Shown here: positions 2,435-24,000 of the stretch, one piece after another
How positions within the stretch are numbered: the stretch's first letter is position 1
Layout of the letters: every line of letters starts with the position of its first letter
NCBI GenBank assembly: GCA_963667575.2
Contig: CAXXHY010000042.1
Coordinates: 115,934-139,933, forward strand
From: Desulfovibrionaceae bacterium
GTDB lineage: Bacteria > Desulfobacterota > Desulfovibrionia > Desulfovibrionales > Desulfovibrionaceae
Length of the DNA: 24,000 nt
Direction: 5' to 3'
The notes under the pieces: generated by a model
What the model was told of the DNA's origin: nothing
Seen by the model: the letters and a program-made list of their open reading frames with translations, nothing else
Database searches by the model: none
Position numbers and translations under genes: made by a program

Positions 2435-2455
2435 ATATCAATCGAGCGTATTCGT

Positions 2456-3260: not shown

Positions 3261-3306
3261 GAAAAATGCAGAGCCGCAGAAATCGTGAAAGTTCCTGCGG
3301 CTCTGC
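3261..3306 (-). terminator. rho-independent terminator downstream of the small ORF 3360..3518
   Basis: Perfect 12-bp stem: GCAGAGCCGCAG (3268-3279) pairs with CTGCGGCTCTGC (3295-3306), with a 15-nt loop. On the minus strand it is followed by A-TTTTT. Confidence 0.6.
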
Positions 3307-3359
3307 TGTTTCAAAAATGGAGCTCAAATCCTGCGGCGCTCCATCTGTGGAAAATAGAA

Positions 3360-5103: not shown

Positions 5104-5380
5104 CGTCGTTCTCCTCGTAGTTGTCCCGGCGGCTCTTGCGTCCGTTGCCCTGGTCGCTGTCCTGGTCCAGAATCAGCGTTTCCAGGGCCTCGATACGATT
5201 TTCCATCCGGTTGAGGCTGTTGTAGATCTCCTGGATCATACGCGCTTCGCTTTCGCTCTCTTCGCTGTCCTGACCCGAGCCGTTGCCTCGCAAGGCTTTG
5301 AATACCAGAACGGCAAGCAAGGTGAGCACGAGTACGCCTATCAGCATCATGCCCATGACGGCTCCCATGAAATGAAACAT
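5084..5380 (-). CDS. pspB: PspB-like envelope stress response membrane protein
   Basis: It has a single N-terminal TM helix, then ARMIQEIYNSLNRMENRIEALETLILD, which resembles PspB ...RMRERIQALESILD. It sits between pspA and pspC, with a GGAGG SD. It carries an extra acidic C-terminal tail. Confidence 0.7.
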   Translation of the reverse strand: MFHFMGAVMGMMLIGVLVLTLLAVLVFKALRGNGSGQDSEESESEARMIQEIYNSLNRMENRIEALETLILDQDSDQGNGRKSRRDNYEENDDGMRTE

Positions 5381-5445
5381 AGATACAGCCTCCTGAATGA
5401 ATTTTCCGCTCTATCCTGCCACGCAAGCCTCGCGGCTGCAAAGCA

Positions 5446-6111: not shown

Positions 6112-6152
6112 GACAGCCTCCTTTGGCATGATTGCGTTCGTTTTCTTTCTTA

Positions 6153-6169
6153 AAGCAGAAGACGTGCCA
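6153..6169 (-). promoter_or_regulatory. sigma54 (-24/-12) promoter of pspABC
   Basis: The minus strand reads TGGCACGTCTTCTGCTT. GG and GC are 12 nt apart, as in the consensus TGGCACG-N4-TTGCW. It lies ~40 nt upstream of the pspA ATG, and the divergent gene encodes a sigma54 activator. Confidence 0.8.
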
Positions 6170-6303
6170 AATTAAGTCAAACTGCTAACCTACTGAATTA
6201 ATGAGAATAGTATAATTGTCTTGGAATGATTAGTGTGGTAAAATTTACTTTATAATAGTTGAAACAATAAAAAGTGCATAATTTTACCAGCAATGGAGGC
6301 GGC

Positions 6304-7332
6304 ATGGCACCGGATAATTTGCCGAGGCACGCGTTGGATATCGAACCGCTGGGCAGCTCCGAGGTTTTTCTGGAGTTCAGCGAACAGCTGACCCAGGCCG
6401 CCCGGGTGGAGCGTCCGGTGCTGCTTGTGGGCGAGCGGGGCACGGGCAAGGAACTGGCCGCGGCCAGGCTGCATTTTCTCTCCGAACGGTGGGAAGGCCC
6501 CTGGGTGGCCCTGAACTGCGCGGCCGTGGCCCCGGAGCTGGCCGAATCCGAGCTGTTCGGCCACGAAACCGGCGCCTTTACCGGCGCGGTGTCCCGGCGC
6601 ATTGGACGATTTGAGGCAGCGGATACGGGCACTCTGTTTCTGGACGAACTCGGGCAGCTCTCCCTGGAGGCCCAGGGCAAAATACTGCGTACGGTGGAGT
6701 ATGGGGTGTTCGAGCGTATCGGCAGTACGCGGACACTGCGTACTGATGTGCGGGTGGTGGCGGCCACCAATGCGGACCTGCCTGCCATGGCGGCCAAAGG
6801 GGAATTTCGCGCGGACCTGCTGGACCGGCTCAGCTTTCTGGTGCTGACCCTGCCGCCCCTGCGCGCGCGTGGTGAGGATATCCTGCTGCTGGCCAACCAC
6901 TTCGCGCAGCGTATGGCGCAGGAACTCAGGTTGCCGGGGTTGGTGTATTTCGGACCGCGCGCCCTGGAGCAGCTGGCCGACCATCCCTGGCCCGGCAATA
7001 TCCGCGAACTCAAGAACACGGTGGAGCGTTCGGTATTCCATACGCAGGGGGAGGAGATCGAAACCCTGGATCTGGACCCATTTGATTCGCCCTGGCGGAT
7101 GGGCGGAACAGATACCACATCCCGTACGCGGCAGATTTCCGAAGCGTCTCCATTGTCGATGGAATCTTTGCCGTCCGATCTGGATGGGGTTTTGCGGGAC
7201 TACACCATCGGGGCGCTGCGTCAGGCTCTGGAAGAGAGCAGGCACAATCAACGTACCGCGGCCGAACGCCTGGGCCTCAGTTACAACCGCTTTCGCGGAT
7301 TGTACCGGAAGTACGAGGCGGAGCTGTCGTGA
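6304..7332 (+). CDS. pspF: sigma54-dependent transcriptional activator, PspF-like (no N-terminal regulatory domain)
   Basis: Start taken at ATG 6304 (GGAGG at 6295-6299). Walker A is GERGTGKE, the GAFTGA loop is HETGAFTGA, Walker B is LFLDELG, plus PWPGNIRELKN. The C-terminal Fis-type HTH is NQRTAAERLGLSYNRFRGLYRKY. It is divergent from pspA. Confidence 0.88.
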   Translation: MAPDNLPRHALDIEPLGSSEVFLEFSEQLTQAARVERPVLLVGERGTGKELAAARLHFLSERWEGPWVALNCAAVAPELAESELFGHETGAFTGAVSRRIGRFEAADTGTLFLDELGQLSLEAQGKILRTVEYGVFERIGSTRTLRTDVRVVAATNADLPAMAAKGEFRADLLDRLSFLVLTLPPLRARGEDILLLANHFAQRMAQELRLPGLVYFGPRALEQLADHPWPGNIRELKNTVERSVFHTQGEEIETLDLDPFDSPWRMGGTDTTSRTRQISEASPLSMESLPSDLDGVLRDYTIGALRQALEESRHNQRTAAERLGLSYNRFRGLYRKYEAELS

Positions 7333-7378: not shown

Positions 7379-7972
7379 TTAGTAAACGAGCTTGTTCTTT
7401 TTCAGGCTGACGGTAAAGGATCCCTTTTGCGTCGGGCAGCAGCCCGGATCCTGGGGACCGTGGTAGACAACATGCGCCACAAGTTTGTCGCCTTTCAGTT
7501 CGAGGCTCTCGAAACGAAGTTTGGAACTTCCCACAGCGGCCTGATTGATGTGGTAGTCCTTGCCTGTTTTGGTGACAATGCAAAGGAAGCGTACTTCGCC
7601 GTTTCCACCGTCAAATTCGCTGAGCAGCAGGGCGGCGGCAGGAGTGGAGCCCAGCGTGCCCGTGGCGATGAGGCTGATTTCCGCGGATTGTTTTTCGTAT
7701 GCGCCGTTCGTAAATTTTACCAGCGTATAGGGCGGATTTTCAACAAAATTGCCTTCCAGGAAGCTGCCGAAGAGCTGAATCTTGAAGGATAAGTTTTCAA
7801 TGGCCTGTTTGGTCAGTTCGCCGCTTCCGGGAACATCATAGGACATGTTTTCATAAAGATCGGTGAATTTTTGCTGTTTGCACAGCCCCTGCACGGGCAG
7901 CACGAACAATGCGGCAAGCAGGATCGGCAAGATCAGGAAAAGGCGCCTGGTACGGTAATCAAAGCAATGCAT
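7379..7972 (-). CDS. secreted/periplasmic hypothetical protein
   Basis: 197-aa ORF. The N-terminus RRLFLILPILLAALFVLPVQG looks like a signal peptide. A G-rich SD is present. I did not recognise a family. Confidence 0.75.
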   Translation of the reverse strand: MHCFDYRTRRLFLILPILLAALFVLPVQGLCKQQKFTDLYENMSYDVPGSGELTKQAIENLSFKIQLFGSFLEGNFVENPPYTLVKFTNGAYEKQSAEISLIATGTLGSTPAAALLLSEFDGGNGEVRFLCIVTKTGKDYHINQAAVGSSKLRFESLELKGDKLVAHVVYHGPQDPGCCPTQKGSFTVSLKKNKLVY

Positions 7973-8028
7973 GCGGGTTCCCCCCCTGATAATGTTGCTA
8001 ATGTAGTAAAGAACATTACAAATAGATA

Positions 8029-8078
8029 AATATGTAAAAATATTTAATTGTAGCTAGAATGAATATGTAAAAATATTT
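8029..8078. repeat. two direct copies of a 17-mer (AATATGTAAAAATATTT), 33 bp apart, in the AT-rich leader of 7379..7972
   Basis: Identical 17-mers at 8029-8045 and 8062-8078. A nearby inverted repeat AATGTT...AACATT lies at 7991-8017. Confidence 0.7.
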
Positions 8079-8167
8079 TTTACGTCCAGTATCTTTTACA
8101 ATTCTTTGGGTATCTTTATGCAATGCCAGAGGGGCAGCTTGGAAGGCTCGGAAGTGAAGCAGCCGTG

Positions 8168-9298
8168 TCAGATCACTTTGCGCAGCAGCGGCAACTTGCA
8201 GAGCAGATGGGCGGCAAGAAAGGTCACCAGTACGGACGGAATGGCGACAAGAACGAAGTTCAGCACCGGGTACTGGGTCATGTGGGGCAGCAGCAGTTTC
8301 CCGAAAATACAGAGCGGAATGACCTGCAGAAGATAGGCTGCGTACGCGGATCGGGAAAGGAGCCGGGTCCAGTTGTTTTTTTGGGCAAAGAGCGTCTGGA
8401 AGCCGAAGAGCAGAAAAATACTCATGCCCAGGACTTCGAAAGGCCGTGAAACCATATCGGAAAAAGGCTTCAGAAAGGTCAGGGCCAGAATCCAGATGAG
8501 AATCCAGGTGAACGCGTACCTGAAGGTAATCTGACCGAGCCAGCTGTTTTTTTGCGCCTGAAGGCCAAGGCAGAACATGGCGATGTACATGGGGAAATAT
8601 TTCAGCAAATGAAAACCGAGAAAATCCTCGCCCAGCGTACGCATCAGATAGAGCCCCAGAAAATTGCAGGGAATCATCAGCACGGCAAAAAGCAGCATGT
8701 GGGCTGTTGGCGGAATCGGGGCGGGCGTCCCAGAAGATGGAGCCTGGGCCGGGCGGAATTTCCTCATCAGAACATACGCGCCGTTGAAAACAATCAGCGC
8801 CCAGCAGAACCAGGTCACTCCCATCAGCATGTTGCCTGTCGCCAGCATGGAGCCGTATAACCCGAATGCGCTGCCCATGGATGCGAAAAACGAGGTGTCT
8901 CCGCAGATATACAGGGCCACGGGGTCGATGAGCAGGATCGTTACCAGGGTGGGAATGCCCAGGCGTACGAGCTTGTCCTGCATAAAAATTCTGGCGCCTT
9001 TTCTGTTGTACGAGGACGCAATAAAATAGGCGGAAATGAAAAAGAACAGGCTCATGAAAAAGCCCTGGTTTATGGACTGAAAGGACCTGAGAATGGAGTA
9101 TTGAAACTGCTGCGCCTTGTCCACCAGGGGCAGATTGATGGGAAATTTGTCCAGTCCGGCAATGGCCGCGGCATGGTGCAGGATCACCAGAACCGCCAGC
9201 GTCCATTTGATGTTGTCCAGATAGTCGTAGCGAATCTTGCGCACCGGTGCTAGCGGCTGATCCGTGGATTTTTCAATGTTTCTATCCGCGTCCGGCAT
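8168..9298 (-). CDS. acyltransferase family 3 integral membrane protein
   Basis: 376 aa with about 10 hydrophobic helices. The N-terminal IRYDYLDNIKWTLAVLVILHHAA fits the Acyltransferase_3 signature (R..xLDxxK/R...V...H). Confidence 0.8.
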   Translation of the reverse strand: MPDADRNIEKSTDQPLAPVRKIRYDYLDNIKWTLAVLVILHHAAAIAGLDKFPINLPLVDKAQQFQYSILRSFQSINQGFFMSLFFFISAYFIASSYNRKGARIFMQDKLVRLGIPTLVTILLIDPVALYICGDTSFFASMGSAFGLYGSMLATGNMLMGVTWFCWALIVFNGAYVLMRKFRPAQAPSSGTPAPIPPTAHMLLFAVLMIPCNFLGLYLMRTLGEDFLGFHLLKYFPMYIAMFCLGLQAQKNSWLGQITFRYAFTWILIWILALTFLKPFSDMVSRPFEVLGMSIFLLFGFQTLFAQKNNWTRLLSRSAYAAYLLQVIPLCIFGKLLLPHMTQYPVLNFVLVAIPSVLVTFLAAHLLCKLPLLRKVI

Positions 9299-9392
9299 GG
9301 TTATTCCCTGTCTTTCTTGAAAAGCAGAAAAAGAAGCAGCCCGATGAAAACAAATATATAAACATTCAACAGGGTGTCCAGCAATTGTTCAT

Positions 9393-10883
9393 TCACGGCT
9401 GTACCGCCTTTTCTTTTTGCAGTGCCTTGAGCAGGCAGACCAGCAGCAGAAGCACTATGAACACAAAGGGATTTGCGGACAGGGCAATGATGGCCCGGAC
9501 GTCGTCCACGCTGTCCGTGATGATCATCACCAGTCCCAGTGCGCCGAGCAGCGCGCCCCAGATCAGTTTTATCCGGGTGGACGGGTTTTCGTCGCCGCCC
9601 GAGGAGAACATGGCCAGCACATAGGCCGCGCTCACCACGCTGGTGACCAGAAACAGGAACGAGGCCGCGATTACGGCCAGGCTGGTCACGTCCGCCAGCG
9701 GAAGCGACTTCAGGAGCGAGAAAGTCGCCAGATCCACGTTGTCGCGGGCCTGCGTCAGATCAAAGCTGCCCGCTTTTGCCGCTGCGAACCCCATGCTGCC
9801 CCAGATGCTGAACCAGGCAATGGAAAAGCCCGTGGGCGCCAGCAGCACGCCGAGAATGTATTCGCGAATGGTCCTGCCCTTGGAAATACGCGCGATGAAC
9901 ACTCCCACAAAGGGCGCCCAGGCCAGCCACCAGACCATGTAGTTCAGAGTCCAGGAGCCGAACCAGTCGGTCATTTCCCCGCCGAAATAGGCATAGGTGT
10001 GAAAACCCTGCCAGATGCATTTGCTCAAATAGTCCCCGGTGGCGTCGAGCATGCTGCCCATGAGAAAGGACGTGGGCCCGGCCAGCACGATGTAGCACAA
10101 CAGGCCGATGGTTATGGCTATGGCCAGGTTGGAGAGTCTGGCCATGCCGTCGCCGAGATCCTTCAGCAAAGGAATGAAAAAGGCGACGCAAAGGGCCGCG
10201 AAGATGCCGAAGCTCAGCCCCAGGCCGCTTTCCTGCATGCCGAGCAGATCCGCGACGCCGCTCTGAACCTGGAAGACGCCCATGGCCACCGAACCGCCCA
10301 GGCCGATGGCAATGGCGTAAATGGCCAGGACGTTGATTGCCCAGCCCACCGTACGGGGAATTCTGCCCGTGCCGAAAACCACCACCAGGGGCGAACTCAG
10401 CAGGGCCGGGGCTCCCTTGCGATAGGAGAAATAGGCGATGACCAGTCCGGTCAATCCGTAGATGGCCCAGGCGTGAAAGCCCCAGTGGAAGATGGTTATG
10501 AAAACCGCCGCGCCGGCGGCCTTGCGCGGGGACAGCTCCTGCGCGGCGAACAGACTATGGGTGGCAGGTTCGGCCACGCCGTAAAACAACAGCCCCACGC
10601 CCATACCGGCCGCGAACATCATGGTCAGCCAGCTGCCCGTGGAGAACTCCGGACGGTCGTCATCACGCCCCAGGCGTATGGCGCCATGGTGGGAGAAAGC
10701 CAGCCAGGCGCAGGCTATGAGCAGAATATTGACCGTGATCATGATGAACCAGCCCCTGCTCTGGAACATCACGCGTACGGAGTCGTTGGCAAATCCGGCC
10801 AGGCTCGTGGCATCGAACGCCCCCCAGCCCACAATGATCCCTGTAAGGGCCAGGGCAGTGAACAACAACCCGCGATTCTTCAT
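9393..10883 (-). CDS. BCCT-family (betaine/carnitine/choline) transporter
   Basis: 496-aa polytopic protein. WTLNYMVWWLAWAPFVGVFIARISKGRTIREY matches the BCCT signature block. It lies 94 nt upstream of the acyltransferase gene on the same strand, so the two are probably one operon. Confidence 0.9.
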   Translation of the reverse strand: MKNRGLLFTALALTGIIVGWGAFDATSLAGFANDSVRVMFQSRGWFIMITVNILLIACAWLAFSHHGAIRLGRDDDRPEFSTGSWLTMMFAAGMGVGLLFYGVAEPATHSLFAAQELSPRKAAGAAVFITIFHWGFHAWAIYGLTGLVIAYFSYRKGAPALLSSPLVVVFGTGRIPRTVGWAINVLAIYAIAIGLGGSVAMGVFQVQSGVADLLGMQESGLGLSFGIFAALCVAFFIPLLKDLGDGMARLSNLAIAITIGLLCYIVLAGPTSFLMGSMLDATGDYLSKCIWQGFHTYAYFGGEMTDWFGSWTLNYMVWWLAWAPFVGVFIARISKGRTIREYILGVLLAPTGFSIAWFSIWGSMGFAAAKAGSFDLTQARDNVDLATFSLLKSLPLADVTSLAVIAASFLFLVTSVVSAAYVLAMFSSGGDENPSTRIKLIWGALLGALGLVMIITDSVDDVRAIIALSANPFVFIVLLLLVCLLKALQKEKAVQP

Positions 10884-11115
10884 CCCCTTCTCCTATGCCG
10901 ACGCCGAAGCAAAAAACAGGCTGGTTTCAAGAGCATTCTGTGAAAGAATCAGTACGCCTATACAATTTTCACGGATAACGTACAGGAAAATACGGCTTGT
11001 TGGCAAATCGGTTGGGATTATTTTGGGGGGAGTGGGACCTGGATAGCTGTTTTTTGCCCTTGCAACTCATGGCCGCAGCACCTACAAATGAAGCATACGT
11101 ATGGGAGGAATGGCC

Positions 11116-11342
11116 ATGGCCAAGTATACGCGCGAAGAAGAGTTTCAGATCATTCAACAGATTAATGCCGCTAAAAGCGCGGGGACAGGGAAGAGGCCAG
11201 GCGCCTGGCCAAGCAATTGCCCCTGGCGCCGCATCTGGCCAAGTCTTTGAAAGAGCAGTTCGGTCCTGAAAACCTGCTTTCCGAGCAATACGATCTTTCC
11301 GAGGCGGAAGCCGTGTATGGGAAAAATTGGCTTAATAAATGA
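11116..11342 (+). pseudogene. small (75 aa if corrected) helical protein gene that needs a -1 shift at GGGG 11181-11184
   Basis: GGGAGGA SD lies 7 nt before ATG 11116. Frame 1 gives MAKYTREEEFQIIQQINAAKSAG and then turns into W/P/R-rich sequence ending at TGA 11248-11250. The adjacent frame opens immediately after a TAA at 11172-11174 and has no start codon. It reads DREEARRLAKQLPLAPHLAKSLKEQFGPENLLSEQYDLSEAEAVYGKNWLNK*. Confidence 0.55.
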
Positions 11343-12003: not shown

Positions 12004-12957
12004 ATGTCCGAATCAGAATCTTTCGAACAGGCCAAGGATATAGCGGGGCGGATCATCGACAACATCCGGACGGTGATGCGCGGGCAGGACCGGGGCATAC
12101 GGCTGTTGCTGGCGGCGTTTGCCGCCGGGGGGCACGCGCTGCTGGAGGATGTGCCGGGCACGGGCAAGACCACTCTGGCCAAGTCCCTGGCCCAGTCCTT
12201 CAAGGCAGAATTCAAGCGCGTGCAGTTCACTCCGGACCTGCTGCCCTCGGACATTCTGGGCGTGTCCGTGTATGAGCAGGGAGAGGCCCGTTTCCGCTTT
12301 TACAAGGGGCCCATTTTTGCCAACATTCTGCTGGGCGATGAGATAAACCGGGCTTCGCCGCGTACGCAGTCCGCGTTGCTGGAGGCCATGGCCGAATTTC
12401 AGGTCAGCATGGACGGCAAGCGTATGCGCCTGCCAGAGCCTTTTTTCGTTGTGGCCACCCAGAATCCGCTGGAGTTTCACGGCACCTATCCGCTGCCGGA
12501 ATCCCAGCTGGACCGTTTCGCCGTCAGCTTCGGCCTGGGTTATGTTCCGGAAGAGGAGGAGATAGCCATCCTCACCGAACAGACCCGCAGCCATCCTCTG
12601 GAACGGCTCAGACCCTGCGCGGAGCTGGCGGACGCTATGCTGCTGCAGGAGGCGGTCCGCGGCATCCGGGTGGACGGGCAGATCAAGGAATACATCGTCC
12701 GTCTGGCCGGGGCCACGCGTACGGCGTCGGGCATCCGCCTGGGAGCCAGTCCGCGCGCCTCGCTGATTCTGATGCGGATCAGCCAGGCCCTTTCGCTGCT
12801 GGACGGCTACGCCTTTGTCACTCCCGACGCCGTGCAGGAGGCCGTTGTTCCGGTGTTTTCCCACCGTCTGGCCCTGGAGCAGCAGGCCAGTTTTTCCGGC
12901 CAGAGCGCGGAGCAGCTTCTGCGCGAGATCATGGGCTCTCTGCCGGTTCCCTCCTGA
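12004..12957 (+). CDS. MoxR-family AAA+ ATPase
   Basis: Walker A is DVPGTGKTTLAK, Walker B is LLGDEINRASP, plus ATQNPLEFHGTYPLPESQLDRF and GASPRASL. GAGGA SD is present. Confidence 0.92.
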   Translation: MSESESFEQAKDIAGRIIDNIRTVMRGQDRGIRLLLAAFAAGGHALLEDVPGTGKTTLAKSLAQSFKAEFKRVQFTPDLLPSDILGVSVYEQGEARFRFYKGPIFANILLGDEINRASPRTQSALLEAMAEFQVSMDGKRMRLPEPFFVVATQNPLEFHGTYPLPESQLDRFAVSFGLGYVPEEEEIAILTEQTRSHPLERLRPCAELADAMLLQEAVRGIRVDGQIKEYIVRLAGATRTASGIRLGASPRASLILMRISQALSLLDGYAFVTPDAVQEAVVPVFSHRLALEQQASFSGQSAEQLLREIMGSLPVPS

Positions 12958-12972
12958 CACGCCGAACTATTC

Positions 12973-14421
12973 ATGGACAGCCTGCGTTTTCTTTTTTTGG
13001 ACCTCCGGGACTTTGCCAGGCGGCGCTACGGGCCGCTTCTGGCATCCTTCTGGCGTACGGGGCAACGCTCCTGGATGCGGTTCACCACCATGGGCCGCGT
13101 GGTGCTCGTAGGCTACGGCATGACCCTGTTGTTTGTGGTCAATACGCGGACCAGCATGAACTACCAGCTTTTTGTGCTGCTGCTGGTGCTGCTCGCCGTG
13201 GCCTTTGCCGGCAGCATGCTCATGAGGCGGCAAAAGCGCTCCATGGCTGTGCAACGTACGCTGCCCCAGTATGCGACCGCGGGCGAACCTTTCAGCTATG
13301 CAGTGACTATCCGCAACACCGGTACGCGGGAAATCGGCCCGCAGCAGCTCATGGAATTTCCGCGCATGGTCCGTTTCACGGATCAGGGCAGCGCAAAGCA
13401 TGATCCTGGTGAATCGGAGAAAATCCGCCGGCACGTTCGGATCCGTTGGCGCGCCCTGCTTGAACGGACTGCTGATCCCGAGGCGGACGAACCGCTGATT
13501 GCGCAGCTTGCCGCCGGAGATAGCGCCACCGTACGTCTGGACGTGCGCGCGCCGGCGCGCGGACTGCTGGAGTTCGGATCCGTATTGCTGGCCAGGCCGG
13601 ATCCGCTGGGTTTGTTTCAGGCGTTCGCGGTGCTGCACCGTGAGGACCGGCTGCTGGTGCTGCCGCGACGCTATGTGCTGCCGCCCCTGGAACTTCCGGG
13701 CGGGCGGCGGTTTCAGCCCGGAGGCGTCAGTCAGGCCGCATCCGCGGGAGAGTCCGGGGAGTTCGCGTCATTGCGGGATTACCGCAGGGGGGATCCCCCC
13801 AAGCATATCCACTGGCGCAGCTGGGCCAAGACAGGTCGCCCCATCGTCAAGGAATACCAGGACGAATTTTATACGCGCCATGCCCTGGTGCTGGATACGT
13901 TTCCGGACCCCAAGCGACTGCCCGGCAGCCGCGATGCCGCCCTGTTCGAGGAGGCCGTATCCGTGGCGGCATCCCTGGCGGTGCTGGAACACGGGCAGGA
14001 CAGCCTCATGGACCTGCTTTTCGTGGCCAACAAGGCCTACCAGTTCACGGCAGGGCGCGGTCTGGCCCAGTCCGGGCAGATGCTCGAGGCCCTGGCCGCG
14101 GTGGGGCCCTGCCTGGAGCAGCCCTTTGAACTGCTGCAGCGTACGGTGCTGCGTCAGGCCGCCCGCATCTGCGGCTGCATCTGCGTACTGCTGAACTGGG
14201 ACACGGCCCGGCAGGAAATGGTCCGCGGGCTGCTGGCCGAAAACGTGGAGCCCCTGGTGTTCGTGTTGCTGGATCAGCGGGCGCCTCAGCCGGATCCCGG
14301 CCCGCTGCAAGCAATGCCCGGAAGGTTTCACCCCTTGCGTATGGGGCGGATTCAGGAAGATCTGCAACGTGCGGGCAGCGGTTTTGCGCAACGTCCCGGA
14401 ACCTCCGGAGGCCATGCCTGA
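12973..14421 (+). CDS. DUF58 domain protein with two N-terminal TM helices (usual partner of MoxR)
   Basis: SLRDYRRGDPPKHIHWRSWAKTGRPIVKEYQDE is the DUF58 core motif. The gene starts 16 nt after the moxR-like stop. At 482 aa it is longer than the ~300-aa DUF58 proteins I recall. Confidence 0.85.
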   Translation: MDSLRFLFLDLRDFARRRYGPLLASFWRTGQRSWMRFTTMGRVVLVGYGMTLLFVVNTRTSMNYQLFVLLLVLLAVAFAGSMLMRRQKRSMAVQRTLPQYATAGEPFSYAVTIRNTGTREIGPQQLMEFPRMVRFTDQGSAKHDPGESEKIRRHVRIRWRALLERTADPEADEPLIAQLAAGDSATVRLDVRAPARGLLEFGSVLLARPDPLGLFQAFAVLHREDRLLVLPRRYVLPPLELPGGRRFQPGGVSQAASAGESGEFASLRDYRRGDPPKHIHWRSWAKTGRPIVKEYQDEFYTRHALVLDTFPDPKRLPGSRDAALFEEAVSVAASLAVLEHGQDSLMDLLFVANKAYQFTAGRGLAQSGQMLEALAAVGPCLEQPFELLQRTVLRQAARICGCICVLLNWDTARQEMVRGLLAENVEPLVFVLLDQRAPQPDPGPLQAMPGRFHPLRMGRIQEDLQRAGSGFAQRPGTSGGHA

Positions 14422-16393
14422 GATGAAACCGCCGCTGTTCTGTCTTTCCGCCGCATTGCTGTTTTGGGGCTGGCTTTCGGGCTTTCTGGTGCCTGCGCTG
14501 GTCATGGCGCTGCTGCTGGAGCTGGCCGGGCCGTCGGGCATCCGGCTGCGTATCCGGCTCAGAGATCTGAACCGGATTGCGGATTTGTGCGTATTGCTTG
14601 TCACAGGGGCCATTGTCTATCTGTTTTTCACGCCCATGGACAATGACGCCATTCTCCCGCTCATCGTGACCCAGTGGAGCCCCATGTTGTTCTATCCGCT
14701 GGCCCTGGCCCAGGCCTATGCGGAAAGTGAAACCTTCGCACTGGTGGCGCTGCTGCCGGTGCTGGGGGCGCGCCGGAGCAGGGAACTGGACCGGAAACCG
14801 CAAAAAGTTTCTGGCGCCAATCTGCTGTTCCCCTATTTCGGCCTGGTGCTGCTGGCAGCGGGCAGCGCGAATCAGCGCTATAACCTGTACTATACGGTGC
14901 TGTTCGTGCTGGTGGCCTGGGGGCTATCCGCAGCCCGTCCGAAATATGCGGGGCCTTCCGGGGCCTCATGGAAAGGGTGGCTGCTCTGGGCCGGGCTGCT
15001 TCTGGCCTGCGGTTACATCGGCGATGTGGGGCAGGAGAAGCTGGACGAACAACAGGCCCGCTTGCGCGGCTGGTCGGCCGGAGCAGACCCGTACCATCGC
15101 GAGACATCCATGGGCAGCATGGGGACGCTCAAGCTCTCAGACAAGATTCTGATGCGCGTACGCCCTGGCCCGGGGCGCAAAGGGCCGCCGCATCTGCTGC
15201 GCGAGGCCAGCTACAATTTTTATCGCGGGCTCTCCTGGGAGGCTGCCACCGGCTTTTTCGGCGTGGTGCCTTCCAAGGATGCGGACAAGACCGACTGGAT
15301 TCTGCATTCGGGGCTCGATGCGGACGGCTACGTGAGCATCTATCGCTATTTCCCGCGTCGTCTGGGATTGGTCCCGGTGCCCGGCGGCACCACCAGAATT
15401 TCGTCGCTGCCGGCCAGGGAAGTCCTGCTGAACAGTCTGGGCGCCATCAAGGCGGAGCGGGCGGACGGCCTGTGCGCCTACAAGGCCTGGTATATTGAGG
15501 GTGGTTTTCTGGAAGGCGGTCCCAATCCGGTGGATGAGGTGGTGCCTCCGGCGGACCGTCCGGCCCTGGAAAAGATAGCTCAAGACAGCGGACTGGATAC
15601 CGCGGCTCCGGAAGATGTCTCCAGGACACTGCTGGAATATATCTGGAAGCACTACAGCTATTCGCTGCGTCTGGAACGGAGCGACACCAAGCTGGATCCG
15701 TTGAGTGATTTTCTGTTGAATACGCGCAAGGGGCATTGCGAGTATTTTGCCACGGCCGCGGCCATGCTGCTGCGCCAGGTGGGGATTCCCAGTCGTTACG
15801 TGGTGGGCTATGCGGTGGTGGAATATGATCCGGAAACGGATTTTTATATTATCCGCGAACGCCACAGACACGCCTGGGCCATTTATTACGCAGGGTACAG
15901 CTGGCATGTGCTGGATGCCACACCGCCGGACTGGAGCGCGCTGGAATACCGCGAACCGGGGTTCTGGCAGAAGCTGGATGATTTTCGTTCGCGCGTGATA
16001 TTCACCCTGTCCAGCTGGCGCTGGCTGGAGGAACGGGGCAAGGTCAAGACAGGCCTGCTGCTGGGAGCCCTGGCCCTGGGGCTGGTGATGGCGGTTCGTA
16101 TTTTGCGGCAACAGGGCAAACAAGGGCTTCGCCGCATACGCCGCAAGAAAAATCCATACGGGGCCGAGGAAAAAGAACTGCCCTTTGCCAGAGTGGAAGC
16201 CCGGCTGCGCAGGCAGGGTTTGGAACGTCCGGAGTGGGAGCCGTTGAAACGCTGGCTGCAGGAAAACAACCAGGAAGCCCTGCTGCCCGGAGTGCGGCTG
16301 CATTACAAACAGCGTTTTGATCCCGAGGGATTCAGCGAAGCAGACCTGCGGCAATTGGAAAAAATCGTGGAGGAATGGCTGCGACAAAGGTAG
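14414..16393 (+). CDS. transglutaminase-like membrane protein
   Basis: The Cys-His-Asp core is GHCEYFATAAAMLLRQVGIPSRYVVGY ... RHRHAWAIYY ... WHVLDATP. There is a multi-TM N-terminal region and one TM helix after the core. The start is ambiguous: ATG 14414 overlaps the DUF58 stop, and ATG 14423 lies 1 nt after it. GGAGG is at 14407-14411. Confidence 0.88.
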   Translation: MPEMKPPLFCLSAALLFWGWLSGFLVPALVMALLLELAGPSGIRLRIRLRDLNRIADLCVLLVTGAIVYLFFTPMDNDAILPLIVTQWSPMLFYPLALAQAYAESETFALVALLPVLGARRSRELDRKPQKVSGANLLFPYFGLVLLAAGSANQRYNLYYTVLFVLVAWGLSAARPKYAGPSGASWKGWLLWAGLLLACGYIGDVGQEKLDEQQARLRGWSAGADPYHRETSMGSMGTLKLSDKILMRVRPGPGRKGPPHLLREASYNFYRGLSWEAATGFFGVVPSKDADKTDWILHSGLDADGYVSIYRYFPRRLGLVPVPGGTTRISSLPAREVLLNSLGAIKAERADGLCAYKAWYIEGGFLEGGPNPVDEVVPPADRPALEKIAQDSGLDTAAPEDVSRTLLEYIWKHYSYSLRLERSDTKLDPLSDFLLNTRKGHCEYFATAAAMLLRQVGIPSRYVVGYAVVEYDPETDFYIIRERHRHAWAIYYAGYSWHVLDATPPDWSALEYREPGFWQKLDDFRSRVIFTLSSWRWLEERGKVKTGLLLGALALGLVMAVRILRQQGKQGLRRIRRKKNPYGAEEKELPFARVEARLRRQGLERPEWEPLKRWLQENNQEALLPGVRLHYKQRFDPEGFSEADLRQLEKIVEEWLRQR

Positions 16394-16406
16394 GGGGGCG
16401 TGGGGT

Positions 16407-16578
16407 GTGGGGCTAATGCCATGTCGCCCTTACAGGGCTTTTCATTTAATTCATGCGTGTTACCCAGGGCTGCACCCTGGGCTGTAAATAACCCGCCCCG
16501 TTGGGGCTAGGGTCTTGGCGATGCGGGATAAATTGCAACCTGCTTAGGGGGTGTACCTGGCAGGGTGCTTGTGCATCG
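16407..16578 (+). repeat. hairpin-rich intergenic repeat, copy 1
   Basis: It contains GCCCT-TAC-AGGGC, CCCAGGG-CTGCA-CCCTGGG and GCCCC-GTT-GGGGC stem-loops. It starts 14 nt after the transglutaminase stop. Confidence 0.85.
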
Positions 16579-16641
16579 TCTCTTTGCCCGCTTCAAAAAT
16601 ATTGTTTGGTGCTCCGGGCTTCAGGCTTCAGGCGTCGGGGG

Positions 16642-16813
16642 CCGGGGCTGGGGCCATGTCGCCCTTACAGGGCTTGTATTTTGTTGCGGTCATCATACCC
16701 AGGGCTGCACCCTGGGCTGTAAATAACGCGCCCCGTTGGGGCTAGGGTCGTGGCGCTGCGGGATAAATTGCAACCTTCTCTGGGGGTGTACCTGGCAGGG
16801 TGCTTGTGCATCG
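16642..16813 (+). repeat. hairpin-rich intergenic repeat, copy 2 (tandem, 235-bp period)
   Basis: By hand alignment, 16696-16813 against 16461-16578 shows 6 mismatches in 118 positions and no indels. The 23-nt head GCCATGTCGCCCTTACAGGGCTT is identical (16653-16675 vs 16418-16440). The 20-nt spacer between head and core is diverged but has the same length. Confidence 0.85.
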
Positions 16814-17048
16814 GATCCATGTCTGTCTTCGTCCCTAGGCCTACCGCATTTATTTTTCGCAGTGCACAGTGGGGTGTCATCTCCATTATTTATCCCGCAA
16901 TGTATTCCTATCGCAACGTGCATACCCTCGCGCATGGCATTCCCTTTTGCTTACCTCTGATGCAACATTTCCCTTTTGGATTTTCACTCCTGCGGATTTG
17001 TACCCATCTTTGGCATTTTGCTCCCCCAGTCGCATCGCATCCGGGGCA

Positions 17049-17140
17049 AGCCCCAACGGGGCGGCTTATTTATAGCCCAGGGTGCAACCCTGGGGGTGGG
17101 TGGGCGATGTTTTTTTGAGCTCTGAAGGGGCGACATGGCA
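17049..17140 (-). repeat. partial inverted copy (copy 3) of the same repeat
   Basis: 17049-17094 equals the reverse complement of 16463-16508 with 3 mismatches in 46, all outside the two stems. GGGCGACATGGCA at 17128-17140 equals the reverse complement of the head. The 33-nt head-to-core spacing is conserved. Confidence 0.8.
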
Positions 17141-17187
17141 GATGACAATCACTGTATACGCCGCATCTGCAGGGCCGGAAAAAGCGT

Positions 17188-17218
17188 AAAAAAAAGCCTG
17201 CCGAAACGTTCGGCAGGC
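17188..17218 (-). terminator. strong rho-independent terminator of 17247..17897
   Basis: The minus strand reads GCCTGCCGAA-CGT-TTCGGCAGGC (10-bp stem) followed by TTTTTTTT. Confidence 0.85.
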
Positions 17219-17246
17219 CATGGAAAGCAGCGGCGGATGGGCTTTG

Positions 17247-17897
17247 TCAGCGGAAGAACCGCGTGTTTTCCTCGATTTTGATCAAAATGGGAATCATCAG
17301 GAACAGCACCAGGAAAATCAGGGAGAAGCATAACAGCATCAGAATATACGTGCGTTCTTTATAGGAAGCGTCCCAGCGTCCTTTTTCCTGGCGTACGAGC
17401 TGGATGAAAATCTTGTTGTACTTGTGAGCCATGTTCAGGAAAAGCGCTTTTTGGTCGACGCCCTCGAGGTTGAGATCCTTTTGTTGTTCCAGCCAGTCCT
17501 TGTAGCCGCCCAGAAAGTCGTACAGACCGTCCACAAAACGGGTCCGGCGGTTGATGGGCGTATTGGCCAGCCATTCTACGATGGTTTCGTAGCTTCCGGT
17601 GTCCAGATTATAATCTTCAATGATGTTCTTGATATGCGAGTCGTACTTGTTGGTGACGGCCCGCTTGGTGTCGATCATGGAAAAGTCGAGCTCTTTCTTG
17701 CTCTGATTGGAAACGTCCAGGTAGGGCAGAAATTCGTCGAATTCCGGTTCCTGCAGTCTGTCCGGGGCTGCTCCGAGATACATGAACAGACCAATCACAA
17801 AAAGAATAAGGCATAGCGATGCTATGCACAGAGAAGTTATTTTTCCAAATCGCAGAAACAGGTTGGTCAACCTGTCGGATTTGCCGGAGTCGAACAT
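17247..17897 (-). CDS. hypothetical membrane protein (N- and C-terminal TM helices flanking a ~140-aa soluble domain)
   Basis: 216-aa ORF. GAGGTG SD lies 6 nt upstream. The TM helices are ITSLCIASLCLILFVIGLFMYLG and YILMLLCFSLIFLVLFLMIPILI. GC content looks lower than in the neighbours. Confidence 0.75.
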   Translation of the reverse strand: MFDSGKSDRLTNLFLRFGKITSLCIASLCLILFVIGLFMYLGAAPDRLQEPEFDEFLPYLDVSNQSKKELDFSMIDTKRAVTNKYDSHIKNIIEDYNLDTGSYETIVEWLANTPINRRTRFVDGLYDFLGGYKDWLEQQKDLNLEGVDQKALFLNMAHKYNKIFIQLVRQEKGRWDASYKERTYILMLLCFSLIFLVLFLMIPILIKIEENTRFFR

Positions 17898-18154
17898 TCC
17901 AGCACCTCACTTGCTTGTTGGTTTATATTTCATCTCCCGGATATGAAAGACCCTAACGGATATCCGGGGCACTTGCAAAGGACAGCATATATGCCTTTCG
18001 ACCGGTCAAATCAAGGGATTCATTTTCATAAAAATCAGTATGCAGCATGGGCGCATACGGCCCTGTCCGTTGCGTTCCTCCGCCAATGATGCGTATAATG
18101 ACCTAGCATGAAGTCGCAAATAACGTAAACCTTGGAACATGCAAAGGCGGAACA

Positions 18155-19807
18155 ATGGAGCTGAGCACTCTCAAACAGATCGGCCGCTTCAATGACATCG
18201 TTCTGACGCTGTTCAAATACGGTTTCCACGACACGGTCGAACGCATCGGACTGCCCTCGGGCATGTTCAAACGCGAACACGAAGGCCCCTACGCCAGGGA
18301 ACACGCTTTTGCGCGCGTACGGCTGATGCTGGAGGAACTGGGCCCCACTTTCATGAAGCTGGGGCAGATTCTGTCCATGCGTCCGGACCTGGTGCCGGCG
18401 CCCCTGTGCGATGAATTGCGCCGCCTGCAGGATCAGGCCCCTGCCGCGCCGTATGAAGAAGTTCGCGTCATGGTGGGGGATGCCCTGGGGCGCCCGCTGG
18501 AGCTGGTGTTCAAGGAGTTCGATGAAGAGCCCCTGGCAGCGGCTTCTCTGGGGCAGGTGCACCGGGCCGTGCTGCGGGAAGAGGACCGGGAGGTCGCCGT
18601 AAAGGTGCTCAAGCCCGGCATGCGCCGGACCATGGAACAGGATCTGCAGATTCTGGTTACCCTGGCCGATCTGCTGGACGGACGAATCAGCGCCCTGCGC
18701 AATCACGACCTTCCGGCGATCGTGGCCGAACTGCGCAAGGGGTTGCTCCGCGAACTGGATTACGGCCACGAGGTCCGCAACATGCGGATGGCGCGCAACA
18801 ATCTGCAGAGCATGCGCGAAGTTCTCGTACCGGGCGTGCTCATGGAATATTGCAACGACCGTATCATCACCATGGACATGATCCGGGGCAAAAAGCTGGA
18901 CGAACTGGGGGATGAAAGCGACTCGGCCCGGGCGCACTGGGCGTCGGTGGCGCTGCGCTGCCTTACCAGCCAGGCCATGGGCGACGGCTTTTTCCATGCC
19001 GATCCGCATCCGGGCAATGTGCTGTTTCTGCCCGAGGGCAGGGTGGCTTTTCTGGACTGGGGCATGGTGGGCAGGCTGACGGCCAACATGCGCCACGCCC
19101 TGGTGGACCTGCTGGTGGCCGCGTCCGAACGGGACAGCGAACGCGTGGTCAACGTGCTTTTCCGGCTCACCAACCACCGGCGCAACGTGAACACCCTGGC
19201 CGTGGAGCAGGAGGTTCTGGATATCCTGGACCTCGGACTGAATACCGCCTGCAAGGACATTCACGTAGGGCAGCTGCTGCAGGAACTGCAGCACGCGGTG
19301 GACAAGTACGGTCTGCAGTTTCCGCCTTCCCTGACCATGCTGGGCAAATCCATCCTGACCACCGAGGGCCTGGCCCGCAGGCTCTGTCCGGAAGTGAACT
19401 CCATTGCCGAAACCGCTCCCCTGTTCAAAAAGCTGGCAAAGGAACGCTACTCCCTGCGCACGGGCGCGCGTACGCTGCGCAATCTGCTTACGGGGTTTCT
19501 GGACCTGCAGCGCAGCCTGCCCGAGCGGCTGGACATGCTTTTCAAAAAGGCCGAACAGGGCGAGGTCAGCGTCCGGTTCAAGCATGAGAATCTGGAAGGC
19601 ATCCGCGAGACTCTGGATCAGGCGAGCGAACGGCTGGCTCTGGCCGTGATTCTGGGCGCGCTGTTCGTGGGGTCGTCCTTGCTCATCACCACGGGCCTGG
19701 AGCCGCTCATCTTCGGCTATCCGGCTCTGGGGGTCATCGGCTTTCTGATCTCCGGCTTTTTTGGTTTGCTGCTGGCCATCACCATCTTTCGCCGCAAAAA
19801 GTTCTGA
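18155..19807 (+). CDS. ABC1/UbiB-family atypical protein kinase
   Basis: GPTFMKLGQILSMRPDLVPAPLCDELRRLQDQAP is the ABC1 signature. Also present are AAASLGQVHRA, VAVKVLKPG, FHADPHPGNV and LDWGMVG. There are two C-terminal TM helices. Confidence 0.9.
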   Translation: MELSTLKQIGRFNDIVLTLFKYGFHDTVERIGLPSGMFKREHEGPYAREHAFARVRLMLEELGPTFMKLGQILSMRPDLVPAPLCDELRRLQDQAPAAPYEEVRVMVGDALGRPLELVFKEFDEEPLAAASLGQVHRAVLREEDREVAVKVLKPGMRRTMEQDLQILVTLADLLDGRISALRNHDLPAIVAELRKGLLRELDYGHEVRNMRMARNNLQSMREVLVPGVLMEYCNDRIITMDMIRGKKLDELGDESDSARAHWASVALRCLTSQAMGDGFFHADPHPGNVLFLPEGRVAFLDWGMVGRLTANMRHALVDLLVAASERDSERVVNVLFRLTNHRRNVNTLAVEQEVLDILDLGLNTACKDIHVGQLLQELQHAVDKYGLQFPPSLTMLGKSILTTEGLARRLCPEVNSIAETAPLFKKLAKERYSLRTGARTLRNLLTGFLDLQRSLPERLDMLFKKAEQGEVSVRFKHENLEGIRETLDQASERLALAVILGALFVGSSLLITTGLEPLIFGYPALGVIGFLISGFFGLLLAITIFRRKKF

Positions 19808-19921
19808 TCCGGCCCGTACGTACTCTGCATTTCACTCGAGCATGGATACCGGGACGGAGGTGGAGTCTTATCCTGCCCCCGTCCCAGGTGTTTTTATGGA
19901 TCTCCCTTGCAAAAAACAGAC

Positions 19922-19944
19922 TTTTCTAGTAATTATCTAGAAAA
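19922..19944. promoter_or_regulatory. perfect 8-bp inverted repeat (possible operator) upstream of the GAF/GGDEF-like/TPR gene
   Basis: TTTTCTAG-TAATTAT-CTAGAAAA, ending 27 nt before ATG 19971. Confidence 0.35.
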
Positions 19945-19970
19945 AATTTGTGTCATAAAGGGAATTCCCC

Positions 19971-22364
19971 ATGCTCCATGCCGACAGTTTGTTTACCAAC
20001 CAGGTCATTCGTCTTACCCGTCAGGATTGCATCACCTACGAGAAGCTTCTCGAAAGCGAAGTGGCGTCGTTCGTCGACTTCGAATCCCACAGCCTGTATT
20101 TTCCGCAGACGCCTCCCCCCCAACATGCGGCCGGAGTCCGAAGGCGCGGGCTGGCGGGCCGAGTATCTGCAGGACGAGCGCAAGCTGTTGATTCCCCTTG
20201 CTCTGGGAGGCGAACTGCTGGGCATTTTTCAGGCGCGGGGCGTACGCTTGCGCGCTCCCAAAAGCATGCTTCCGCTGATCAGCCGTATGGGAGCCGTGTG
20301 TCTGGAAAAACTGCTGCTTTACAAGCGTTCGATCAGTTGCGCCCAGACCGGGCTGCTGGCCCGTGAGCCGTTTCTGGCTTTGCTGGAGCGGGAAATGGGC
20401 AGCGTATGCGATTGCCTGAGCCCGAGCATGGAAGGCAAGGAAGGCCTGAAAGCTCCGGCCTACAAAGCGGGCGTTCGGGTTTTCTGGATCCGGGTGCGCG
20501 GGCTGCGCGAGTTGCAGCGGCGGTTCGGATTCATGCTGGCGGAAGGGCTGCTGCGGGATCTGGCCCGCGGCATCGTACAACAGGCGCCGCCTCAGGCCGT
20601 CTGCGGACGGGTGGGAGACAACGGTTTTGCCCTGATTCTGCCCGAGGCCGGAGGCAACGGCGTCATGGAGCTGGCCCGGAACCTGGTGGCGGAACTGGAG
20701 ACCCGGACCCGGACCCATGACCTGACCGGCGAAGAAGTGGGCGCGGCCTGCTCCGTGGGCATGGCCCATTTTTCCGCGGGACATGGAAGGCGCGGCTTTC
20801 GAGCGTTCGCTGGGGCGAACAGGCCCGTGAGTTGCTGCGCAAGGCGGAGATAGCCGCCGAGGCCGCCGCGGAACCGGGCATGGACAAGGCGCTGCATTTT
20901 TCGCAGATCATCAAGCAGGGCGGCCTGGTCAAGGAACTTTTGCCCCTCAATCAATACCTGCTCTCCGTGGGTCGCGCCACGGGCGCGGTGAAAGGACAGC
21001 GTTTTCTGGTTTACAACCCCCTGACCACCGAGGGACCCGACGCGCCGCACAAGGCCGAGGTGGTGCTGGTGCAGGTGGGACGATACGAGTTCCCGTGCCG
21101 AGATGGTCCATCAGATGGATCCCACCATCAGCATCGAGCCCGGAGACCGCCTGAAGCTGTTGGGGGATGCGCCTTCCGGACTCTGGGCCGAAATGGGGCA
21201 GGTGGAAACGGATAGCGCCGGGAAGCTGCTGCCTTTTCTCGAATTTCTGGCCATGCTGGCCACCAGGCGCGAACAGTGCCAGCGGTTTCAGCTCAGCCTG
21301 GTGCGGCTGCAGCCCGCGGGCGTGGAAGCCGGCGCCCGGATGCATGAAATGGCGGAAAAAAGCGTCCAGACCGTGGTGGAGCTGGCGCGCCAGTGGTTCG
21401 GCGCGGATCTGCCCGCCAGCCGCTTCAGCCTGCACAGCGTCATGTTTTTCCATGCCGACACCGATCCTGACAAGCTCCTGGAAGATTACAAGAAATTCAG
21501 TCCGGTTCTGAATGTGGAACACGGCATCCAGACCGCCGTGGGCATTGCCGCGTATCCGCATTTGAGCTTCAAAAAGGCCGATATTCTGGAAAATTGCCGC
21601 AAGGCCCTGGATTACGCGCTGCTCCTGCCCGCGCCTCATGTGGGGCTGTTCGATTCGCTGGCCCAGAACATCAGCGCGGATAAATTGTTTAGCCAGGGCG
21701 ATCTGTACGGGGCCCTGGAAGAATACCAGCTGGCTTTGCTGGCGGATCCGGCCAACAATCTGGCCCGCAATTCCCTGGGCATCTGCCTGGCCCGGCTTGG
21801 CAAGCTGGGACGACGCGCGCAAGCAGTTCGAGGAGGTCATCGAACGGGGATGGCGCGGACCTGATGGCCATCTACAACCTGGGCCACGTCTACCAACGTT
21901 TGGGCGAGGGCGCCAAGGCGCGCAGTTCCTATGAACGTTGTCTCGAACTGGATGGCGAGCACGTCTTCAGCCTGATCCGCCTCGGACAGATGGCGGAAAA
22001 GGACAGTGATCTGGAACTGGCCCGCAGCTATTATCAGCGTGCGGCGAATCTTGAAGAAGGACGCGGCCTGACTCACAGGCATATGGCCCGGCTGGCCCTG
22101 AAACTGAACAACGCGGAAGAAGCCCGCGAGCACCTGCATCAGGCCCTGCTGTTCGACCCCAAGGATGCCCTGGCCCTGGGGCTGCTGGCCAAGCTCTACC
22201 TGGAAAACGGCGACGATACGCAGGTGGCCGAAACCCTGGCCAAGCAGAGCGTATCCATCCGGCCCGAACAAAAGAGCGCCTGGATCGAACTGTCCCGCAT
22301 CTATGACAGGCAAGGTAAGAACCGCGAGGCGCAGGACGCCCTGGCCAAGGCGGCTTCCTTGTAA
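19971..22364 (+). pseudogene. frameshift-disrupted signalling gene: GAF-like N-terminus, degenerate GGDEF-like domain (GDNGF), small beta-rich domain, second degenerate GGDEF-like domain, C-terminal TPR array
   Basis: Protein-like sequence continues across ORF-track pieces 19971.., 19948..20853, 20832..21215, 21103..21864, 21638..21934 and 21864..22364, plus a short unlisted frame-2 stretch. Examples: ...SLYFPQTPPP|NMRPESEGAGWRAEY...; ...SVGMAHF|PRDMEGAAFERSLG|EQARELLRKAE...; ...LARLGKL|DDARKQFEEVIER|DGADLMAIYNLGHVYQ.... Every junction lies at a short homopolymer. Confidence 0.75.
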
Positions 22365-22443
22365 ATTCAGCCTGTTGCGCGTCCGGCGGCTTCAGCTGCG
22401 TTTTCGAACGCTTCTGCCGGACCTGCCCTGGCGGAATCGCCCC

Positions 22444-22474
22444 TTGACAAAGCCCCCATCGAGCCCATTATATG
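22444..22474 (+). promoter_or_regulatory. possible sigma70-type promoter for miaB
   Basis: A perfect TTGACA lies at 22444-22449, followed 18-19 nt later by TTATAT/TATATG (22468-22474). This is ~125 nt upstream of the miaB ATG. The -10 element is weak. Confidence 0.35.
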
Positions 22475-22599
22475 CCTCCAGCCGGAAATTTGCCTAAACC
22501 GGCCTTGATGCCCCTGCATGAGGCATGGTATGTTCTGTATAAGACGACTCAAGAAACCTTGTGCCGGGATCGTCAGGAAGCAACTGGATCGGATGTATC

Positions 22600-24000
22600 A
22601 TGACATTTCATATCATTACTTTTGGCTGCCAGATGAACGCCAACGACTCCGAATGGCTGGACCGCGCATTGCGTGCCCAGGGACTGGAGCGTGCGGAATC
22701 CGGGCAGGCCAAGATCTACATACTTAACACCTGCAGCGTACGGGAAAAGCCCGAACTCAAGGTCTATAGCCTGCTCGGACGGCTCAAGGCCTACTGGGAA
22801 CAGGACCCGGAAGTGTTTGTGGCCGTGGGCGGCTGTGTTGCCCAACAGATCGGCAAGCGTTTTCTGGAACGCTTTCCCTTTGTCCGCCTGGTGTTCGGCG
22901 GAGACGGCGTACATATGGCTCCCCAGGCCATTTCGCGCTTGCTGGATAATCCGGACCTGCGCATCAGCCTGCTGGATTTTTCCGAATCCTTTACCGAACG
23001 CCCCATATTCGCGCAGCAGCGTTCTCAGTCCGCGGTGCAGGCCTTTGTGAACATCATGCAGGGCTGCGACAATTTTTGCGCCTACTGCATTGTCCCCTAC
23101 GTACGCGGTCGGCAGAAGTCCCGGACCAGCACGGCCATTCTGGAAGAATGCCGCCAGCTGGCGGACAACGGCGCGCGGGAAATCACCCTACTGGGGCAGA
23201 ACGTCAATTCCTACGGCCTGGACAAGGGTGGGGACGGCGTCAGTTTTGCGTCTCTGCTGCGCCAGGTGGCCGCCATTTCCGGCGTGGAGCGCGTTCGGTT
23301 CGTGACCTCGCACCCCAAGGATCTTTCGGACGAGGTCATCGCCGCGTTCGGGGAGCTGCCGGAGCTCTGTCCGCAGCTGCATCTGCCCATTCAGTCCGGG
23401 TCGGACAAAATTCTCAAGTCCATGGGGCGGCGTTACGATTTGAAGCGCTACCTGTCCCTGGTGGACAAGCTGCGGCGGGCACGTCCGGAAATCACCCTGA
23501 GCACGGATTTTATCGTTGGTTTTCCGGGCGAGGACGAAGCTGACTTTCTGGAAACCATCCGGGTGCTGGAAGAAGTGGATTTTGAAACGAGTTTTTCCTT
23601 TCAGTATTGCGACAGACCCGGCGTACGGGCCGAACGTATGGAGCCCAAGGTGCCGGAAGAGGTCAAGGCGGAGCGTCTGGCCCGTCTGCAGGCCCTGCAG
23701 ATGGAACTGACCACCCGTGCGCTGGCCCGCACCGTGGGGACCGAGGTTCAGGTGCTGCTCGAGGGAATCAGCAAAAAGCAGAACCTGCCGGGCAAGGACG
23801 CCTCGGGGCAAATTTCTCTGCGCGGACGCGATGCGCACGGACGCGTCGTGAATTTGGGCTGGCCCGCGCCGGCAGGGTTTATTCACAGTCCGGACCTTGG
23901 CACGGCCATGCCGCCGCTGCTGGCCGGATTGACGGGCAAGATCGTTCCCGCGGGAATTATCGCGGCCAAGAAACACTCATTATTTGGGAAAGCGACAGGT
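22600..24000 (+). CDS. miaB: tRNA-i6A37 methylthiotransferase MiaB (3' end off-window)
   Basis: Frame 1 is open from ATG 22600 to the window edge (467 codons). It is absent from the ORF track because no stop falls in the window. Motifs: MTFHIITFGCQMN, the radical-SAM motif CDNFCAYCIVPYVRG, GQNVNSYG, LHLPIQSGSDKILKSMGRRY, and a TRAM-like C-terminus. Confidence 0.93.
   Translation, partial: MTFHIITFGCQMNANDSEWLDRALRAQGLERAESGQAKIYILNTCSVREKPELKVYSLLGRLKAYWEQDPEVFVAVGGCVAQQIGKRFLERFPFVRLVFGGDGVHMAPQAISRLLDNPDLRISLLDFSESFTERPIFAQQRSQSAVQAFVNIMQGCDNFCAYCIVPYVRGRQKSRTSTAILEECRQLADNGAREITLLGQNVNSYGLDKGGDGVSFASLLRQVAAISGVERVRFVTSHPKDLSDEVIAAFGELPELCPQLHLPIQSGSDKILKSMGRRYDLKRYLSLVDKLRRARPEITLSTDFIVGFPGEDEADFLETIRVLEEVDFETSFSFQYCDRPGVRAERMEPKVPEEVKAERLARLQALQMELTTRALARTVGTEVQVLLEGISKKQNLPGKDASGQISLRGRDAHGRVVNLGWPAPAGFIHSPDLGTAMPPLLAGLTGKIVPAGIIAAKKHSLFGKATG

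Follow-up and report, generated by a model that had tools for sequence, protein, structure and literature searches.

A conserved degenerate-GGDEF and TPR gene split at six short runs in a Desulfovibrionaceae metagenome contig, probably by consensus errors

By virtue of its six frame breaks, the gene at positions 19971-22364 (forward strand) of the DNA analysed here raises the question of whether it is decaying, is read by recoding, or has been misassembled. The DNA, referred to throughout as the window, is a stretch of 24,000 nucleotides from a Desulfovibrionaceae bacterium (assembly GCA_963667575.2, contig CAXXHY010000042.1, positions 115,934 to 139,933). An earlier note, made from the letters alone, had described a coding frame that steps 0, 1, 2, 0, 1, 2, 0 along the gene, and the same order was seen again over 19971-22364 when 19900-22400 was translated in three frames. 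The mechanical list of open reading frames (ORFs) presents the gene as overlapping fragments at 19971-20366, 19948-20853, 20832-21215, 21103-21864, 21638-21934 and 21864-22364. Deleting one base at each of 20121, 20773, 20815, 21079, 21809 and 21849 restores a single ORF of 2388 nt; the repair that had been proposed, one base off per site, therefore holds, while the length of the product is 795 amino acids and not 797. Since the six insertions add up to a net +6 nt, the last segment returns to the frame of the first. Frames, repair, homologues and an intact second copy together define a gene that lies in seven frame segments in this assembly and encodes a protein of 795 aa in which two degenerate GGDEF-like domains are combined with a TPR array. 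As judged from the sequence comparisons below, the six breaks are very probably consensus (assembly) errors in the deposited contig with no biological feature behind them.

The six sites in two assemblies of one clone

When the exact protein of the adjacent UbiB gene was looked up, a second contig of the same clone came to light, ena:ERZ21862665:ctg8551l (170,473 bp; hereafter L002). Window positions 12334-24000 align with L002:1-11662 over 11,668 columns with 0 mismatches and seven one-base gaps. L002 ends at window position 12334, and the window sequence goes on beyond it. When the alignment was walked base by base, all seven gaps proved to be differences in run length. Six of them are the sites reported earlier, with the extra base of the window at the last base of each run and L002 one base shorter.

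The first site is a C7 run in the window (20115-20121, + strand, as are all six) that is C6 in L002, with one base fewer in the orthologue of a related genome (L001) as well. The second is T5 in the window (20769-20773) and T4 in both L002 and L001, and the third, G4 (20812-20815), is G3 in L002. At the fourth (21077-21079) and fifth (21807-21809) sites, a G3 run in the window is G2 in both L002 and L001, while the sixth, G4 in the window (21846-21849), is G3 in both. The true tract lengths are accordingly C6, T4, G3, G2, G2 and G3, such that two of the insertions (sites 4 and 5) merely lengthen a dinucleotide run from GG to GGG. The extra bases thus fall exactly in the six runs that had been named. 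The fourth site, previously left ambiguous between the G3 run and a C3 run at 21092-94, is settled by L002 as the G3 run with the C3 run uninvolved; the pair formed by the T5 and G4 runs of sites 2 and 3, which had been considered the least certain, is confirmed by the same comparison. On L002, an intact 795-aa protein (P0032) is called at 7639-10026, and the repaired model with site 4 placed in the G run is identical to it residue for residue.

The seventh gap is reciprocal. At 13787-13792 (+ strand) the window has a G6 run where L002 has G7 (L002:1454-1460; gap at window position 13793). This run lies in a DUF58 gene (12973-14421, 482 aa) that is intact in the window, whereas the L002 copy is split across two frames. 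By tblastn, the DUF58 orthologue from L001 aligns over 466 aa within a single frame of the window, whereas its match in L002 is divided between two frames, with the change of frame at the G7 run. Wherever one assembly is broken, the other is thus whole, and at every one of the seven sites it is the longer version that is broken. The public records are likewise separate: the 139,933-bp contig (NCBI and ENA) is the only one with fragments of 253, 242 and 166 aa, and the 170,473-bp contig the only one with the 795-aa protein. No third copy of the clone turned up in the JGI metagenome contigs, which were searched with an exact pattern that reaches across sites 2 and 3 and allows either run length. 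The same-clone comparison is one assembly against one, and it is the orthologues and the mutation spectrum that decide between them.

The insertions are confined to 1.73 kb (20121-21849), with none in the other 9.3 kb shared with L002. The tight clustering pointed out earlier is borne out, as six of the six window-specific insertions lie inside 2388 of the 11,662 shared bases. With the gene making up about 20% of the shared sequence, our own arithmetic gives a binomial probability for all six falling in one gene of (0.205)^6, or about 7e-5. Within the same gene, one A6, one G5, one C5, three T5 and five G4 runs were spared, and the longest runs are not specifically affected. Sites 4 and 5 have the local context TGG(G)ACGA in common. 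A systematic error prompted by this context was considered and set aside, because two other occurrences of TGGACGA in the shared region are unaffected.

Relatives and surroundings of the gene

A search of 5.8 billion proteins returned 20 full-length relatives of 792-846 aa that cover 97-100% of the query, the best of them being P0001 (795 aa, 83% identity). The gene is uninterrupted in every relative examined, which comprises the orthologues at loci L001 and L003 and about 20 family members. The repaired protein aligns over its full length to these single-ORF relatives, and the junctions fall in conserved blocks of the family alignment; the orthologues are thus single genes and not genuinely separate ones with boundaries at the same points, an outcome that the earlier note had allowed for. 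P0001 is encoded on a 4.26-Mb contig of a Desulfovibrionaceae metagenome-assembled genome (MAG), the locus L001. There, the gene order is kept: a MoxR ATPase, DUF58, transglutaminase, a 216-aa gene, UbiB, the orthologue of the split gene and a radical-SAM methylthiotransferase. The orthologues at L001 and L003 are syntenic with the window gene and share about 82% nucleotide and 83% amino acid identity with it. In a global DNA alignment of the window with the L001 gene (82% identity), many pairs of gaps compensate one another, and exactly six extra window bases are uncompensated, at 20114-21, 20769, 20812, 21077, 21807 and 21846. In a scan of genome contigs, the only matches were two related MAGs of Desulfovibrionaceae (83-84% identity) and a TPR protein that is unrelated; the window's own species is not represented there. 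The family as a whole consists of only about 20 protein clusters, and the three that could be placed to genomes are all from Desulfovibrionaceae MAGs.

One other frame break was seen in the window. A 75-codon gene (about 11115-11340, + strand; MAKYTREEEFQIIQQINAAK...) lacks one base in an A4 or G4 run at 11172-11181, and the missing base is best placed in the A4 run at 11172-75. The related locus L003:1304-1528 (OY762289.1) encodes the protein in one frame with 81% amino acid identity. The event of opposite sign that had been remarked on at 11181 is therefore real in the sense that a base is missing relative to this one-frame relative. The coverage of L002 starts at 12334, and the break is probably another run-length error. 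As such, it fits an assembly with residual run-length errors.

Several further features of the surroundings may be recorded. Between the transglutaminase-like gene and the 216-aa gene (16394-17246) lies an intergenic element of about 177 nt, present as two direct copies (16402-16578 and 16637-16813) that are 86% identical and as a partial inverted copy (17049-17140). Every copy holds a palindrome-rich core, CCCAGGGYTGCACCCTGGGCT, which occurs three times where no occurrence is expected. The two related MAG loci lack the core, and Rfam gave no match in the whole window, the element included. An island of low GC content (844-4030; GC 0.43-0.45 against about 0.6 elsewhere) encodes two secreted-looking proteins on the minus strand, at 844-1611 and 2456-3094, which are flanked by long stretches devoid of ORFs of at least 100 aa. 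Both proteins end in a similar way at the C-terminus, with PAATP preceding a hydrophobic helix and a basic tail, an arrangement reminiscent of a PEP-CTERM-type sorting signal. The island may be horizontally acquired DNA. It is followed by a phage-shock cluster (4705-7332), recognised by translations alone, in which a PspC-like gene (4705-5103, minus strand) and a PspA-like gene (5446-6129, minus strand) are accompanied by a divergently transcribed gene for a sigma-54 activator resembling PspF (6274-7332, plus strand). All genes of this cluster appear intact.

The encoded protein

The architecture of the 795-aa protein was examined by domain searches and with an AlphaFold2 model of an 83%-identical orthologue, built with 20 family sequences (mean pLDDT 82.9). 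The model begins with an N-terminal alpha/beta module at about residues 17-121; the N-terminal 125 residues, which the earlier note had called GAF-like, had no Pfam match when searched alone. A first GGDEF-like domain follows at about residues 125-300 (20344-20873, + strand). Pfam PF00990 matches it at residues 167-293 (E 3.4e-9, 37.1 bits against a cut-off of 23.8), and the motif column of the alignment agrees with the earlier observation that GDNGF stands in place of GG(D/E)EF. In a Foldseek search against the PDB, TPR proteins come first and are followed by isolated GGDEF domains (6tts, 3ign; TM 0.85-0.89 on the target). None of the 21 aligned members has an intact catalytic GG(D/E)EF motif, and the residues in its place differ within the family. 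Upstream of the motif, no RxxD I-site is evident.

The small beta-rich domain that had been proposed between the two GGDEF-like domains corresponds to six predicted strands at about residues 305-395 (20886-21159, + strand), for which Pfam gave no match when the domain was searched alone. The second GGDEF-like domain (about residues 415-558; 21217-21648, + strand) lacks the motif and has RFSLHSV in its place. It too had no Pfam match when searched alone. A profile-profile alignment of domains 1 and 2 with hhalign nonetheless gives a probability of 97.2% (E 3e-11), and domain 2 has the same order of alpha and beta elements as domain 1 in the model, so that the claim of a second, motif-less GGDEF-like domain is supported by both the profile comparison and the secondary-structure pattern. 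The TPR array, at about residues 560-795 (21652-22361, + strand), runs through three reading frames in this assembly. TPR_2 (E 1.8e-21) and other TPR models of Pfam cover residues 568-791, the model predicts 16 helices over residues 561-794, and the Foldseek matches agree. A domain-HMM search of the repaired protein, as suggested at the outset, thus returns both GGDEF and TPR.

Overall, this is a cytoplasmic protein that opens with the alpha/beta module, continues with two catalytically degenerate GGDEF-fold domains on either side of the small beta domain, and closes with the TPR array. Because GDNGF replaces GG(D/E)EF and domain 2 is without the motif, synthesis of c-di-GMP by this protein is unlikely on sequence grounds. 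Degenerate GGDEF-domain proteins are known that act as non-catalytic receptors or scaffolds, and we infer that a role as a scaffold or receptor is more likely. The protein resembles them in having the GGDEF Pfam domain and fold with the catalytic motif replaced. It differs in its tandem arrangement of GGDEF-like, beta and GGDEF-like domains followed by about seven TPR repeats, with no EAL or PAS domain.

Origin of the extra bases and what follows from it

Seven indels and zero substitutions between two assemblies of one clone are an error spectrum and not a divergence spectrum. Consensus error is favoured as the origin of the six breaks because the differences are exclusively indels and because each assembly is broken where the other is whole. 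Among the candidates first put forward, a local cluster of homopolymer over-calls is the one preferred, given that L002 is without all six bases and shows no substitution in 11.7 kb. Single-base over-calls would each have lengthened one short run by one, and the errors would be limited to a patch of about 1.7 kb (20121-21849) that probably rests on very few long reads or on long reads of low quality. The cluster may thus stem from locally reduced coverage or read quality. A tight cluster with longer runs spared is unlike the classic length-dependent profile of homopolymer errors and requires the extra assumption of a locally poor read; since the affected runs are not the longest in the gene, a local stretch of poor reads is indicated and not a general error that grows with length.

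Contig names of the form ctgNNNNl presumably point to metaMDBG, and these names alone suggest a metaMDBG long-read metagenome assembly as the source. This assembler is described as working on homopolymer-compressed reads and as relying on polishing to fix errors that are "mostly homopolymers" (PMC11392814). Errors of this kind would persist where there is little for polishing to act on. Indels and frameshifts that fragment genes in long-read assemblies are a recognised problem (PMC12007338). The window shares with the homopolymer indel errors of long reads (PacBio or ONT) the single-base changes of run length, the freedom from substitutions and the splitting of a conserved gene into ORFs in successive frames. 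The extra bases are also missing from the other assembly of the same clone, which has an error of its own of the same kind. It differs in that the insertions are packed unusually closely and all have the same direction, six of them lying within 1.7 kb and some in runs of two or three bases.

A genuine and very recent pseudogene, in which a sub-lineage gained six +1 insertions while the population represented by L002 kept the gene intact, is unlikely. The extra bases are present in the deposited sequence, the two contigs are different records whose samples or sub-populations may differ, the loss of degenerate signalling proteins is often tolerated, and lesions that follow a first knockout would be neutral. 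However, natural divergence consists mostly of substitutions, and none accompanies the seven indels in 11.7 kb. No known process gives six insertions of the same sign in 1.7 kb and none in the 9.3 kb of flanking sequence, and neutral decay would be uniform, at odds with the probability of about 7e-5 computed above. Once the first knockout had occurred, the six independent same-sign insertions would have neither a selective nor a mutational rationale. A mutator defective in mismatch repair would strike long runs genome-wide, with both signs and with transitions in addition. The reciprocal frameshift in the conserved DUF58 gene of L002 would have to be real as well, and the lesions are not reproduced in L002, the sole other contig of the clone. 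Other signs of decay are also lacking, as there are no substitutions and the lesions are not scattered by target size. Phase-variable contingency genes and slippage pseudogenes offer a partial parallel, in that changes of one base in mononucleotide runs switch the frame and one of the sites is a C6/C7 tract. Contingency loci have one long tract, usually of at least seven bases, near the 5' end, whereas here there are six sites, five of which have true runs of two to four bases, and the tracts are not conserved in the relatives.

Slightly less probable still, as far as the sequence allows a judgement, is that the six insertions are real in a sub-population and arose in a localised, insertion-biased burst, for example in an error-prone repair patch of about 1.7 kb. 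If this were so, the degenerate-GGDEF/TPR gene would have been inactivated without one substitution in the surrounding 11.7 kb.

It is very improbable that the window is correct and that the intact frame of L002 was made by frame-aware or reference-guided polishing. Correction tools of this kind exist, as discussed in the study cited above (PMC12007338), but L002 keeps the DUF58 frameshift that a frame-aware corrector would have fixed. Moreover, relatives that are about 17% diverged in DNA show the shorter length at six of six sites, so that L002 represents the ancestral state.

Recoding, in which six programmed +1 shifts of the ribosome, or slippage during transcription of the runs, would yield one protein, was already considered much less likely in the earlier note and is practically excluded. 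The six shifts do have the same sign, all lie at runs and return the reading to the first frame by a net +6 nt. The sites are not conserved, however, and a single frame encodes the protein in L002 and in every relative. None of the sites carries a stop or a rare "hungry" codon (stops in the old frame lie about 11-240 nt downstream), and runs of G3, G4 or T5 are far too short for RNA polymerase slippage, which needs at least about 8-9 A/T. Programmed +1 frameshifting of the prfB type is alike in requiring the same sign of shift for read-through, but there the shift occurs at one conserved site, which has an in-frame stop and is preceded by a Shine-Dalgarno-like element, whereas the window gene has six non-conserved sites without stall codons. 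We know of no bacterial gene with six programmed shifts.

With consensus error as the preferred origin, a false pseudogene stands in the deposited MAG contig (139,933 bp; NCBI and ENA). The resulting fragments of 253, 242 and 166 aa (P0033, P0034 and P0036) are stored as separate proteins in public databases, and the 90% cluster to which the true 795-aa protein belongs is represented by the 253-aa fragment, which is why a full-length search returns no near-identical match. Frame errors that cluster locally in a long-read metagenome assembly can therefore mimic gene decay or recoding, and a second assembly of the same clone together with an alignment of orthologues suffices to expose them. Were the insertions real, some localised and so far unexplained process of insertion would lie behind them. 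Should the shifts be artefacts, expression of truncated products from ATG 20125 or ATG 21864 becomes moot, and the organism would carry an intact gene of 795 codons.
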